Of a DNA stretch of 37,174 nucleotides, positions 473 to 37,174 are shown piece after piece. Location: positions 1 through 37,174 of IMG/VR virus record IMGVR_UViG_2671181127_000013. The stretch is one strand, 5' to 3'. The DNA comes from a virus. Taxonomy: Duplodnaviria > Heunggongvirae > Uroviricota > Caudoviricetes. How positions within the stretch are numbered: the stretch's first letter is position 1; every line of letters starts with the position of its first letter. The position numbers and the translations under genes are program-made. Under the pieces are notes generated by a model that was not told the origin of the DNA, did no database searches, and worked only from the letters and a program-made list of their open reading frames with translations.

Positions 473-613
473 TTACTGTTTACACTGCAAGAACGCCGCA
501 AATTCTGACCACATGATGTTAAGTCTGAACTCACACGGCGAACGGTGTATCATCCAGATGGCCAACAACATGGTTAAGCATAAAATGCTCACGATGATCG
601 TTTTTTGCGGCAT
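473..613 (-). CDS. Hok/Gef-family type I toxin, 46 aa (copy B)
   Basis: My translation: MPQKTIIVSILCLTMLLAIWMIHRSPCEFRLNIMWSEFAAFLQCKQ; about 60 percent identical to copy A, same C-terminal EFAAFLQCKQ. Confidence 0.55.
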   Translation of the reverse strand: MPQKTIIVSILCLTMLLAIWMIHRSPCEFRLNIMWSEFAAFLQCKQ

Positions 614-23635: not shown

Positions 23636-23663
23636 CGCGCTTCGCTTGTCTGCTGCTTCGCCG

Positions 23664-23685
23664 GGGCATAAAAAATTTATGCCCC
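23664..23685. terminator. Palindromic hairpin between convergent Q and the 167-aa gene, in the expected cos region
   Basis: GGGGCAT-AAAAATTT-ATGCCCC inverted repeat; no clean U-run, so terminator function is uncertain. Confidence 0.35.
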
Positions 23686-23700
23686 GACTCTCCAGCTCTC

Positions 23701-24204
23701 TTAACGGAATGCGGATGGCGTTCTTCTTTGCAGCTTGCTGATAATATGCATCTTCATACTGTTTACTATCGGCAGCCATTCCCTGTCACCGTCTCCGTTG
23801 ATGACCACGCGAATGGAGGTATCATCTTCCACGCGAACCCGAAGAGATACACCGTCTTTTCCGACGGAATGTAACTCCATTGCCAGGACTATGTTTACCG
23901 ACTCTCCTTCATCGTGTGAGTCAACCCATGTTCTTACAGCCATCCGGAATATGTTATCTGTGTCGGTTGCAATCATATTTACCGGAAATGGCCTGAAGTC
24001 CCGATCGTTTCTGCACGGAAACCCCGTATCAACGTAACGATGATGCTCGCCGTCTTTGTCTTCCCATGTCTCTGAAGGCAATTCCAGCCACTGCTCATAA
24101 AAAGCAACCAGCTTTTCAGCCTGATTGCGCAGAATCCCTGTAACCTCCCGCCTCGCGTCCCGGCTCTTTTTGTTTGCCAGGTACAAATCGCGAAAATGGC
24201 TCAT
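23701..24204 (-). CDS. Hypothetical protein (167 aa), cos-proximal accessory gene
   Basis: Clean ORF with no family I recognise; sits where P2 carries old. Confidence 0.5.
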   Translation of the reverse strand: MSHFRDLYLANKKSRDARREVTGILRNQAEKLVAFYEQWLELPSETWEDKDGEHHRYVDTGFPCRNDRDFRPFPVNMIATDTDNIFRMAVRTWVDSHDEGESVNIVLAMELHSVGKDGVSLRVRVEDDTSIRVVINGDGDREWLPIVNSMKMHIISKLQRRTPSAFR

Positions 24205-35090: not shown

Positions 35091-35141
35091 GTCAACACCT
35101 TCAAATCCCGATGCTCTTAATGATCCCGGTTTGTTTTGATG

Positions 35142-35666
35142 TCACTGGTTGCCTCCACTGTATTGGTGTTGCTCCAGTTTTGACTTTCTTCCTGTGTAAA
35201 CCCGCTTTCCATTGATGGTCTGGCAGTCTTCTTTGTTTGCCGGGGAAAACTTTCTTTTCTGTCGGTCGTATGTCCAGTAGCTTTTCCAGTTGTGCCATTC
35301 TGGCGGCTCGCATTCTGGTAGTTCGTCAGCCAGCTTGTCCCACTCTCTGGCGTTAAACCACCACACGCCATCCGAATTTTCATCTTCAGGGTTTGAACGG
35401 GTCTTGTGTCCAGGCATCTGATTTCGCTGAAGCGCCACGCGCAATGCAGCTTTTGTCAACCCGATATAGGCTGCCCCTTTTTCAAGTGAGCAAAGTCCGG
35501 CTACCGGGCCATCCAGTCGCAAGGTTGCCCCTTTTTTGTAGGTGCGTTTTTTCTTTTCCTCTTGGTGTTCATCGTCGTTTGTCGCGCCAACGGATTCGGT
35601 GATGCTGTCGTTTTCCTGAAGGGCTTGTGTGTCAGATAACTCTTTATCGGCAATTGACTTCCGCAT
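35142..35666 (-). CDS. Cox-like excisionase/regulator with extended acidic N-terminus (174 aa)
   Basis: First gene of the early operon, divergent from C; AAYIGLTKAALRVALQRNQMPG...VWWFNAREW resembles the Cox HTH region. Confidence 0.5.
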   Translation of the reverse strand: MRKSIADKELSDTQALQENDSITESVGATNDDEHQEEKKKRTYKKGATLRLDGPVAGLCSLEKGAAYIGLTKAALRVALQRNQMPGHKTRSNPEDENSDGVWWFNAREWDKLADELPECEPPEWHNWKSYWTYDRQKRKFSPANKEDCQTINGKRVYTGRKSKLEQHQYSGGNQ

Positions 35667-35725
35667 TTGCTATCCTCTTGCGTTGGTGCGCTTGTCGCGC
35701 CTCATGAAGGTTTGTTTAGGTTTAT

Positions 35726-35749
35726 AAAAGATACTCGCACGAGTATCTT
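35726..35749. promoter_or_regulatory. Perfect palindrome in the C/Cox switch region, candidate operator
   Basis: AAAGATACTCG-CA-CGAGTATCTTT (11-bp arms) between the divergent Cox-like and C genes, next to TATAAA. Confidence 0.5.
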
Positions 35750-35770
35750 TCGCGAGAGGTTAATACTCAA

Positions 35771-36112
35771 ATGGTTATCTTGTCAATAGACTATGCAAAA
35801 AAGCTACGTCAAATACGCAAGGCTGAAGGGCTAACGCAAAAGGAATTTGCGGATATTACGGGGTTGTCTTTAGCTGCCATAAGGAACTATGAATCAGGGC
35901 AAAAAAGCGCCAGAGCCAAAATTGTTGAGATGGTTCTCCAAGTTGATCGGTTTGAAAAATACATGATGTGGCTAATAAAAGATAAGACAATGCCTGCTGC
36001 CGGTCAGATAGCCCCGGCTCTCTCTCTTGATGGCTCCATTCAGTCGGAGGGCGATCAGGTTTCAATCGGCATTACCCAAAAATCACCCCAATCTCGTCGC
36101 AATGCTGGCTAA
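35771..36112 (+). CDS. C: Immunity repressor C (HTH)
   Basis: LTQKEFADITGLSLAAIRNYESG HTH and the GQIAPAL segment shared with the P2 C repressor. Confidence 0.8.
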   Translation: MVILSIDYAKKLRQIRKAEGLTQKEFADITGLSLAAIRNYESGQKSARAKIVEMVLQVDRFEKYMMWLIKDKTMPAAGQIAPALSLDGSIQSEGDQVSIGITQKSPQSRRNAG

Positions 36113-36181
36113 CGCTGTACATCGAGCGGGTTTCATCCCGTAGAGAGTGTACGGCTGATTCATCCGTTGGAGGGGCTAATC

Positions 36182-37174
36182 ATGTCGATTAAGCAACTCA
36201 AAGACGGGCGTTATAAGGTTGATGTAAGACCGCAAGGGACGGAAGGAAAGCGGATCCGTAAGATTTTTACCCTGAAGTCAAAGGCACAGGAGTTTGAAAG
36301 GTATGTTTTGCAGAATTTCCACGATAAACCGTGGCAGGCCAAGCCAGCTGATCAGCGTCGGTTATCCGAACTGATAGATGCCTGGTGGGTGCTTGATGGC
36401 CGGAATCAGCCTTACGGGGATACTTACAGGGTCAGGCTGGAAAAAATAAACCGTGAGATGAGGGACCCCCGCGCCAGTGAGATGACGCGAAAGTTTATGC
36501 TCGGGTATCGTTCAGATAAATTACAGGCCGGATTAATGCCCTCCAGTGTTAATCGTGATTTGTGTGCCTTGTCTGCAATGTTTACCTCGCTGATTGATGC
36601 GGATGTTTTCCATAACGAAAACCCGGTGCGTGGAATACGTAAGCTCAAGGTCAGGAATACAGAAATGGCCTTTCTTTCAGATGATGAGATTGATCGGCTG
36701 CTTGAACGACTCGAGGGGGATGCGCGTCGCGTTGCTGTTCTGTGTCTTTCCACTGGCGCAAGGTGGGGGGAAGCAGCTGGCTTACGTGGTGAGCATATCG
36801 TTGGTAACCGCGTAATGTTCTTTAACACAAAGAATGGAAAATCCCGCGCGGTTCCTGTTTCTGATACGGTGCTTTCGTTGATAAAAACCCGAAAAACCGG
36901 GCTATTGTACCAGGCTGATTACATCCGTTTTCGGGATATCCTTCAGGAGGTGAAACCGGATTTACCCAAAGGTCAGGCGACTCACGTTATGCGTCACACG
37001 TTCGCCACGCATTTCATGATGAACGGCGGAAATATCGTTACGTTACAGCGAATCCTTGGGCACGCCACGATTCAACAAACGATGACGTATGCGCATTTTT
37101 CACCGGACTTTTTACAGGATGCGATTAGCTTTAATCCGCTGGCTGATAGTGTCCATAAACTGTCCATTGACTAG
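36182..37174 (+). CDS. int: Tyrosine integrase (P2 Int family)
   Basis: 330 aa with R...HxxR...Y catalytic-domain features (LSTGARWGEAAGLRGEHI, HVMRHTFATHF, TMTYAH); ATG 36182 with GGAGGGG SD; stop is the last codon of the window. Confidence 0.9.
   Translation: MSIKQLKDGRYKVDVRPQGTEGKRIRKIFTLKSKAQEFERYVLQNFHDKPWQAKPADQRRLSELIDAWWVLDGRNQPYGDTYRVRLEKINREMRDPRASEMTRKFMLGYRSDKLQAGLMPSSVNRDLCALSAMFTSLIDADVFHNENPVRGIRKLKVRNTEMAFLSDDEIDRLLERLEGDARRVAVLCLSTGARWGEAAGLRGEHIVGNRVMFFNTKNGKSRAVPVSDTVLSLIKTRKTGLLYQADYIRFRDILQEVKPDLPKGQATHVMRHTFATHFMMNGGNIVTLQRILGHATIQQTMTYAHFSPDFLQDAISFNPLADSVHKLSID

Follow-up and report, generated by a model that had tools for sequence, protein, structure and literature searches.

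In this article, I discuss the genetic switch of a P2-like prophage of Escherichia coli, carried on a 37,174-nucleotide (nt) stretch of viral DNA (IMG/VR virus record IMGVR_UViG_2671181127_000013, positions 1 to 37,174; hereafter the window), and specifically an inverted repeat that lies in the 104-bp gap between the two divergent genes of that switch. At the end of the window a Cox-family gene points leftward and the repressor gene C, followed by the integrase gene int, points rightward, and the gap (35667-35770) is exactly the space between the Cox-family open reading frame (ORF) and the C ORF; an earlier note, made from the sequence alone, had placed a lysis-lysogeny switch here, and this layout bears it out. 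By its genes the switch is of the P2 type (C/Cox), with a single-domain C of 113 amino acids (aa). I will argue that the inverted repeat belongs to an operator in two parts, read by the P2-type repressor C of the prophage itself, and is the promoter-distal one of these parts, a reading to which I would assign a probability of about 0.75.

The case begins with the repressor itself, since C aligns without gaps, over residues 9-89, to the structures of P2 C (2xcj/2l49, E=1.6e-13), and in tblastn comparisons is 48% identical to WPhi C (residues 10-96) and 35% identical to P2 C. Two P2 C dimers bind cooperatively, bending the DNA. P2 C is a symmetric dimer whose helices have been fitted to two consecutive major grooves, with Tyr31-Ser39 as recognition helix 3 (PMC2995052), and its footprint consists of four protected patches (PMC1904263). 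From the ungapped alignment to Tyr31-Ser39, recognition helix 3 of the window's C comprises residues 34-42, LAAIRNYES (nt 35870-35896).

The inverted repeat, its second unit and the early promoter

The inverted repeat consists of two arms of 11 nt each (35727-35737 and 35740-35750) that are 100% complementary, separated by a 2-bp centre, CA, that is not self-complementary, so that 22 of its 24 positions are symmetric. Its half-site cores, GATACTC (35730-35736) and GAGTATC (35741-35747), are spaced 11 bp from centre to centre, which is one helical turn. The earlier note had described a perfect 24-bp palindrome at about 35726-35749, centred between the genes and next to a TATAAA element, and this description holds in part: the palindrome is present and its arms are perfect, but it lies one base further right, its full symmetry stops at the centre, and that centre (35738.5) sits 20 bp nearer to C than the midpoint of the gap. 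TATAAA is also where it was reported to be (35723-35728, overlapping the first two A's of the palindrome), but close relatives have TTGTAAAG at this place, and it was dropped as a promoter element since it is unconserved among them. If arms of 11 nt or more and a spacer of up to 6 nt are required, the whole window has just two inverted repeats, one of them the palindrome; in first-order Markov shuffles such repeats averaged 0.05 per 37 kb and turned up in 7 shuffles out of 200, and the chance expectation for one in the 104-bp gap is about 1e-4. The palindrome is a real, functional-looking element.

The palindrome also has a partner. A second, imperfect dyad (site 2 in Table 1) is offset from it by 32 bp as a direct repeat and carries 2 mismatches to the dyad motif, and its right arm is an exact match to the half-site. 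Written as AAGATAMYC, this half-site is found in 3 copies in the 37-kb window against 0.63 expected, and these copies are both arms of the palindrome and the right arm of site 2; further credible copies of the dyad motif, or distant secondary operators of the kind known from phage 186, were not found in the same 37 kb. In proposing the palindrome as an operator, the earlier note was very probably right, although the whole operator would include this second unit, which overlaps the start codon of C.

Where these two units lie relative to the promoter of the early operon (Pe) is equally telling. None of the 39 related loci and 11 reference phages lacks the hexamer TGTCAA near the start of C; read on the other strand it is the predicted Pe -35 element, an annotation that it also carries in the P2 record. 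The weight-matrix promoter scan was checked against P2 and WPhi, whose annotated or published Pe promoters come out as top matches, and the -10 pattern that it picked in the window can likewise be read in other lineages (TAnnCT at N18). With a predicted Pe start near 35750, the palindrome would occupy about +1 to +24 of the early transcript; site 2 falls inside the predicted 18-bp spacer of Pe and the palindrome just downstream of the predicted -10, so that the two units flank this -10 in the same layout as in P2 and WPhi.

Table 1. Features of the switch region, in window coordinates (Pe elements, operator units and Cox boxes are predictions).
Feature	Position	Strand	Evidence or remarks
Cox-family gene, 174 aa, first of the early operon	35142-35666	-	Phage_Cox, E=1.3e-5, 25.3 bits against a cut-off of 27.5, residues 58-129
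Two tandem 10-bp repeats, candidate Cox boxes	35708-35727	+	AGGTTTGTTT, AGGTTTATAA; abut the palindrome
Exchangeable immunity cassette, ~300 bp	35718-36020		Palindrome, Pe -10, site 2 and C residues 1 to about 83
Inverted repeat, predicted distal operator unit (site 1; position equivalent to P2 O2)	35727-35750		AAAGATACTCG / CA / CGAGTATCTTT
Likely ribosome-binding site (RBS) of C, GAGAGG	35754-35759	+	11 nt before the ATG; overlaps the Pe -10 of the other strand; inferred from sequence
Predicted Pe -10, TAACCT	35757-35762	-	18-bp spacer; weight-matrix score 11.0, best on the minus strand
Predicted proximal operator unit (site 2; position equivalent to P2 O1)	35759-35782		GTTAATACTCAAATGGTTATCTTG; imperfect dyad centred on the C start codon
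Predicted Pe -35, TTGACA (TGTCAA on plus)	35781-35786	-	Within C codons 4-6; top promoter-scan match
P2-type immunity repressor C, 113 aa	35771-36112	+	Helix-turn-helix (HTH) domain HTH_3, 3e-10; P2 C 2xcj/2l49, E=1.6e-13
Tyrosine integrase, second gene of the lysogenic operon	36182-37174	+	Int_N 7.7e-28, Phage_integrase 7.1e-20; RefSeq coordinates in L002

Conservation of the dyad and exchange of the cassette

To see what is held constant, 20 distinct lineages (C identity 41-100%) from E. coli, E. albertii, Yersinia, Symbiopectobacterium and uncultured viral contigs were aligned on the TGTCAA anchor. The best dyad centre lies 41-43 bp upstream of TGTCAA in 16 of the 20, with 8-12 of 12 pairs matching, and the best direct-repeat offset, in a scan of 20-44 bp, is 32-33 bp in 19 of them. 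The arms themselves are lineage-specific, and whatever arm the first unit has in a lineage is found again in the second: besides the window type (AAAGATACTCG..CGAGTATCTTT) there are the palindrome of the commonest relatives (AAAGATAACC-AAAA-GGTTATCTTT), that of the UTI89 type (CTTCACC-N4-GGTGAAG), and further ones such as CAATGGTCG-N8-CGACCATTG and GGGGTGG..CTACCCC. These regularities bear directly on the notion that the palindrome is a chance or non-functional repeat, for instance the remnant of a template switch, and make it very improbable. Hairpin-templated mutation can indeed create palindromes, and the centre of this one flips between CA and TG among relatives; however, about 1e-4 such repeats are expected in the gap, the position of the dyad is conserved over 41-100% C identity with sequences that are lineage-specific, and the half-site recurs in the second unit.

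The arms also vary with the helix that would read them, in that helix 3 sequences of the form ..IRNY or ..VRNY accompany TATCT, ..IGNY accompanies GTGAAG and ..VKNY accompanies ATACC. Within the group whose arms begin AAAGATA, only two positions of the arms vary (CT, AC or AT), and arms of mixed type are frequent (L021, L024 and L032); this variation, together with the site 2 that the window type and the commonest type share, leads to the half-site consensus AAAGATAMYC. The closest relative with the same C helices (L021) is particularly informative, because its hairpin has fallen to about -5 kcal/mol (z -0.6 to -1.2) with a C.T mismatch while both of its arms still fit AAAGATAMYC, and the conserved feature, as judged from this lineage, is the half-site and not the pairing. 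By the same comparison, the perfection of this particular palindrome is not itself what is conserved.

Two side observations on these dyads deserve a record. The first concerns the centre of the palindrome (35738-35739), which is TG in L002, L019, L070 and L072 and CA in the window and in L073-L075, in prophages that are otherwise near-identical; CA and TG are reverse complements, each state is found in at least 4 independent contigs, and a neighbouring single-nucleotide polymorphism (C/A at about 35701) occurs with both. The pattern appears to reflect repeated hairpin-templated switching that inverts the centre or the palindrome as a whole. The second concerns Escherichia phage Chuche (L059), in which the proximal unit is a near-perfect palindrome, ATTTCTCATATGAGAAAC, symmetric at 17 of 18 positions; the annotated start of its C (MRLNISQ...) is probably too far upstream, and a start at MRNVSIDY would fit both the family and the conserved TGTCAA.

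The strongest evidence on the partner of the palindrome comes from an exchange that has already taken place in nature. Over cox (35121-35720), and once more from 36021 on, across int, two relatives (L036 and L037) match the window at about 100% identity, whereas inside the cassette their identity drops to 44-74%. The divergent block begins about 8-10 bp before the palindrome and breaks off within C near residue 83, at the beginning of the conserved C-terminal region (AGQIAPAL); these boundaries are approximate, having been read in 50-bp bins, with the left break at about 35717-35720. On the two sides of this block the proteins behave very differently: the Cox of L036 and L037 is 98-99% identical to that of the window with an identical DNA-binding HTH region, but their C is 72% identical, with VGTIGNYES as helix 3 and CTTCACC-N4-GGTGAAG as palindrome. 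Furthermore, one Cox type was found with both palindrome types. Because of this swap and this pairing of one Cox with two palindromes, the palindrome goes with the DNA-binding half of C and not with Cox.

This is also what decides against the suggestion in the earlier note that the Cox-like protein may bind the palindrome, either repressing the promoter of the lysogenic operon (Pc) or autoregulating Pe. There are reasons to have considered it, since the palindrome adjoins the promoter region of cox, the Cox-like protein is unusual (its Cox domain takes up residues 58-129 only), and P2 Cox spreads toward Pe at high concentration (PMC3936717). However, a virtually unchanged Cox with the same HTH would then have to recognize wholly different palindromes, Cox-family proteins bind arrays with a 10-11-bp period and not a single dyad, and periodic repeats exist just upstream, so I regard Cox as a quite improbable owner of this site. 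Arrays bound by Cox-family proteins comprise four to six or more repeats, and those of P2 lie over Pc at intervals of 10-11 bp (PMC3936717); the palindrome is a single dyad and no such array (at least 4-6 copies of a ~9-bp box). The tandem 10-bp repeats that abut it show only two copies in the window, but three in L033 and L071; they are conserved across all the lineages that share this Cox, and in distant lineages (L005, L006, L051 and L052) three GGATT repeats with a 10-bp period stand in the same place. My guess would be that these tandem repeats are the Cox boxes, for which they appear to be better candidates than the palindrome. Repeats of the AGGTTTRT type were sought near the attachment (att) end, and none were found downstream of int in L002 or at the start of the window.

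As for the Cox-family protein, which RefSeq names 'Cox family DNA-binding protein' in relatives, it is about twice the usual length (174 aa compared with about 90), with ~57 aa of acidic and lysine-rich sequence ahead of the Cox domain and ~45 aa behind it, and a sequence search of the PDB returned no match to it. It is probably both the repressor of Pc and the excision factor.

The exchange of cassettes has consequences for how these prophages are classified. The alternative cassette is found in PhiECO5, the prophage of E. coli UTI89 (L077), which Nilsson et al. (2011) placed in a tentative P2-type immunity class IX (PMC3448106), and within a class the C proteins are 95% or more identical (PMC3448106). 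The C of the window shares about 70% identity with the UTI89-type C and 91% with the C of the commonest type; these values are below the within-class value, and the window therefore probably represents an unnamed immunity class. The non-P2 immunity specificity that the earlier note had suggested is supported, in that C is 35% identical to P2 C and its sites are unrelated to the GTTTAGAT of P2. Between the window type and the commonest type (with AAAGATAACC arms), the difference is far smaller: their 91% identical C proteins carry a base-contact difference, A36T, and their site 2 is identical and holds one arm of each. That site 2 is shared despite A36T suggests that the two specificities overlap, and the two types may or may not be heteroimmune. 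Site 2 is itself a hybrid in sequence, with a left arm (ATACTC) of the window type and a right arm (GGTTATCTT) of the commoner related type.

An operator for C weighed against a hairpin

If the palindrome is indeed the distal operator unit, one symmetric C dimer would sit on it with its recognition helices (34-42, LAAIRNYES) in consecutive major grooves at the half-sites AAAGATACTC, and both helices of this dimer would read specific bases. A second C dimer would bind the weaker unit 32 bp away, which is three helical turns and hence on the same face, in the spacer between the Pe -35 and -10. Together, the two dimers would flank the Pe -10, cover the start site and exclude RNA polymerase, and this block of Pe would keep cox and the lytic early operon off, so that lysogeny would be maintained and the cell made immune to superinfection. 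The perfect distal site may serve as a high-affinity site of nucleation. The operator and the DNA-binding half of C are swapped as one ~300-bp cassette, an exchange through which immunity specificity would change in this group. What the analysis itself shows is the anatomy of the element, its rarity, its conserved position, its inheritance together with C and not with Cox, and the homology of C to P2 C; binding by C, its stoichiometry, the exact start of Pe and any effect on Pc are, in this scheme, inferred.

Several observations weigh against this reading. The palindrome can fold on both strands, at -11.5 and -12.9 kcal/mol (z -2.6 and -4.1), and with 24 bp the symmetric element is longer than the typical 14-18-bp operators of HTH dimers. 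In WPhi (L057) and Yersinia phage P37 (L064), an inverted repeat encloses the mapped distal half-site instead of coinciding with it, for which an operator model has no explanation. In L047 and L049 there are clear, near-identical direct repeats without any dyad, so that symmetry is not obligatory. The fit of the left arm of site 2 to the half-site is poor. Compensatory changes in the arms and variable 4-nt centres are equally expected of a hairpin. Finally, Pe is a sequence-based prediction, and a consensus promoter scan of 35400-36200 gave nothing for Pc; on the plus strand, the weight-matrix scan returned weak and unconserved Pc candidates, namely TTTATA-17-TATCTT (inside the palindrome) and TTGTCG-19-TAGGTT, with TTGGTG-17-GATGGT in relatives. 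With regard to the arms, covariation was set aside as proof of RNA structure, since symmetric protein sites give the same signal; the second unit and the relative L021 served to discriminate in its place. On the repeats of WPhi (TCAAAAGGT..ACCTTTTGA) and P37 (CCCGAAAAGGT..ACCTTTTCGGG), it may be added that they span 24-63 bp upstream of TGTCAA and have their dyad centre at 42 bp, as in the palindrome.

The folding evidence would also be at home in a different explanation, in which the palindrome acts as a nucleic-acid hairpin instead of, or besides, a protein site: a stabilising stem-loop at the 5' end of the early transcript, a stem-loop in the C leader upstream of the RBS, or a pause or roadblock that tunes interference between the convergent promoters. 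A Pe start at the predicted position would give the early RNA this stem as its 5' terminus, many lineages have strong hairpins at the same position with centres of at least 4 nt that are freely variable, the arms of the inverted repeats in WPhi and P37 are not the mapped half-site, and the CA/TG flip suggests that a DNA hairpin forms at times. In addition, exchange of the phage DNA flanking the WPhi operator shifted a Pe reporter about 100-fold, with the cause left open (PMC1904263). What a hairpin leaves unexplained is why a second unit with the same half-site lies 32 bp away, and why this unit changes in step with the palindrome from lineage to lineage. Nor does the hairpin persist where the half-sites do, its stability being lost in L021, and it is absent from L047, L049, P2, P88, 720R8 and pro483; the positions that are not Watson-Crick pairs mix G.T, C.A and C.T, so that neither transcribed strand is favoured. 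I therefore consider a hairpin as the sole function unlikely, and an added role in RNA or DNA possible alongside the operator for C.

One specific kind of hairpin, the intrinsic terminator, was considered and rejected, there being no G+C-rich stem with a U-tract: the stem has 3-4 G-C pairs only, its tails are CGCGAG (plus) and UAUAAAC (minus), and no terminator-like site was detected on either strand in 35400-36200. Similarly, a search of Rfam 15 over 35300-36300 yielded a single match, a spurious long non-coding RNA at E=0.48, well below the gathering score.

Relation to other switches and significance for the P2 family

The background on which the earlier note had relied, that P2 C binds direct repeats and 186 CI inverted repeats, is confirmed by the literature (PMC1904268). 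In P2, 8-bp direct repeats 22 bp apart flank the Pe -10, and in WPhi these are 10-bp direct repeats 34 bp (three turns) apart (PMC1904268); in all seven classical P2 immunity classes the half-sites are non-palindromic and seemingly direct repeats (PMC2995052). From this rule the distal unit of the window departs, being a perfect 11+2+11 dyad. What appears to be new here is a dyad-symmetric predicted operator in a repressor family known for direct repeats; the switch element is otherwise ordinary, and the palindrome reveals no new kind of regulatory system.

The closest characterised repressor is C of WPhi (P2-type immunity class III), at 48% identity, and the resemblance extends to the gene order (cox leftward, C-int rightward), the Pe -35 TTGACA at the start of C, and two units on either side of the Pe -10 whose spacing is about three turns, at 34 bp in WPhi and 32 bp in the window. 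However, the mapped half-sites of WPhi are 10-bp non-palindromic direct repeats, GTCACCAATA, unrelated in sequence, with a separate inverted repeat flanking the distal one, whereas the distal unit of the window is a dyad of 2 x 11 bp and its proximal unit is weakly dyad-symmetric. P2 shares with the window a homologous C, two units on either side of the Pe -10 and a Pe -35 over the first codons of C, and the four patches of its footprint match the four half-sites of the window. It differs in that its 8-bp direct repeats, GTTTAGAT, are 22 bp apart and have no dyad partner; in the model for P2 C only one helix per dimer reads specific bases (PMC2995052), whereas in the window each helix of the distal dimer is predicted to have a specific half-site of its own. 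PhiECO5 is nearer still, belonging to the same prophage family, with the same dmsA integration site, long Cox-family gene, integrase family and switch layout, and a dyad at the same place, but it carries the cassette CTTCACC-ATGT-GGTGAAG with a C that is about 70% identical. A search of the literature on P88 or Xuanwuvirus found nothing on the switch.

Outside the phages, the predicted operator may be likened to those of the restriction-modification controller proteins (C.AhdI and C.Esp1396I), small HTH dimers structurally like P2 C (PMC2995052) that bind cooperatively, one dimer per site, to two adjacent palindromic C-boxes. Their sites are 15 bp apart in place of 32 bp, their role is the timing of restriction and not immunity, and the match between the C of the window and C.AhdI (E=0.004) is too weak for family membership. 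Phage 186 offers the other obvious parallel, with a P2-like phage switch, convergent promoters and a repressor on inverted repeats, and the earlier note had leaned in its direction. A 186-type switch, in which a CI-like repressor on inverted repeats is helped by distant sites, has a single point in its favour here, namely the inverted repeat between the switch genes. The CI of 186 has 196 aa and two domains (PMC1904263), forms a 14-mer, and works with three inverted repeats, distant sites and a cII gene, features of which the window shows none. The repressor of the window is a single-domain homologue of P2 C (113 aa) and not a two-domain CI, the 37-kb window is without additional dyad sites, and the two units flank the Pe -10 in the P2 and WPhi style, all of which renders a 186-type switch scarcely credible.

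Now considering the prophage as a whole, the window starts with two hok-like genes and ogr, after which come the late genes (portal, terminase). The two tandem ORFs of the Hok/Gef toxin family (1-141 and 473-613, minus strand, 46 aa each; Pfam E=3e-7 and 5e-6) adjoin, at this late-gene end, an Ogr/Delta zinc-finger late activator (7e-16) at about 748-1050, also on the minus strand. The only other repeat with perfect 11-nt arms in the window, CGGGGCATAAAAAATTTATGCCCCG at 23662-23686, lies 27 bp past the stop of the portal gene (23635) and ahead of an ORF that runs toward it (23701-24204, minus strand); its terminator-like hairpin probably ends transcription in both directions. Near-identical copies of the prophage adjoin dmsA in E. 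coli chromosomes, and relatives of the switch region are present in 351 of 5,426 complete genomes (16 of the 351 at 95% identity or above). Prophages of this group are common in ST131 and UTI89-type strains.

It is tempting to extend the argument to the whole family. P2-family C repressors in general may read dyad-symmetric sites, one dimer per ~20-bp unit, in which case the direct repeats of P2 and WPhi would be what remains of palindromes that have decayed, namely their better-conserved arms, and this group would have kept both arms. It would then provide the natural system for resolving a mismatch noted long ago, between the symmetric dimer of P2 C and the asymmetric DNA that it binds, and the palindrome might at the same time be a 5' stem-loop of the early transcript and a hotspot of hairpin-templated inversion; I offer this as a tentative idea, possible but on balance doubtful.

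P2 C and its relatives are the standard example of symmetric HTH dimers on non-palindromic direct repeats. If the palindrome is an operator for C, a predicted operator with a full palindrome, in so widespread a group of prophages, would make a simple test of the model in which only one helix of the dimer is specific. Furthermore, the specificity swaps that nature has already made would be available for mapping the residues of helix 3 to the bases that they read, and the immunity groups of these prophages would become predictable from sequence.

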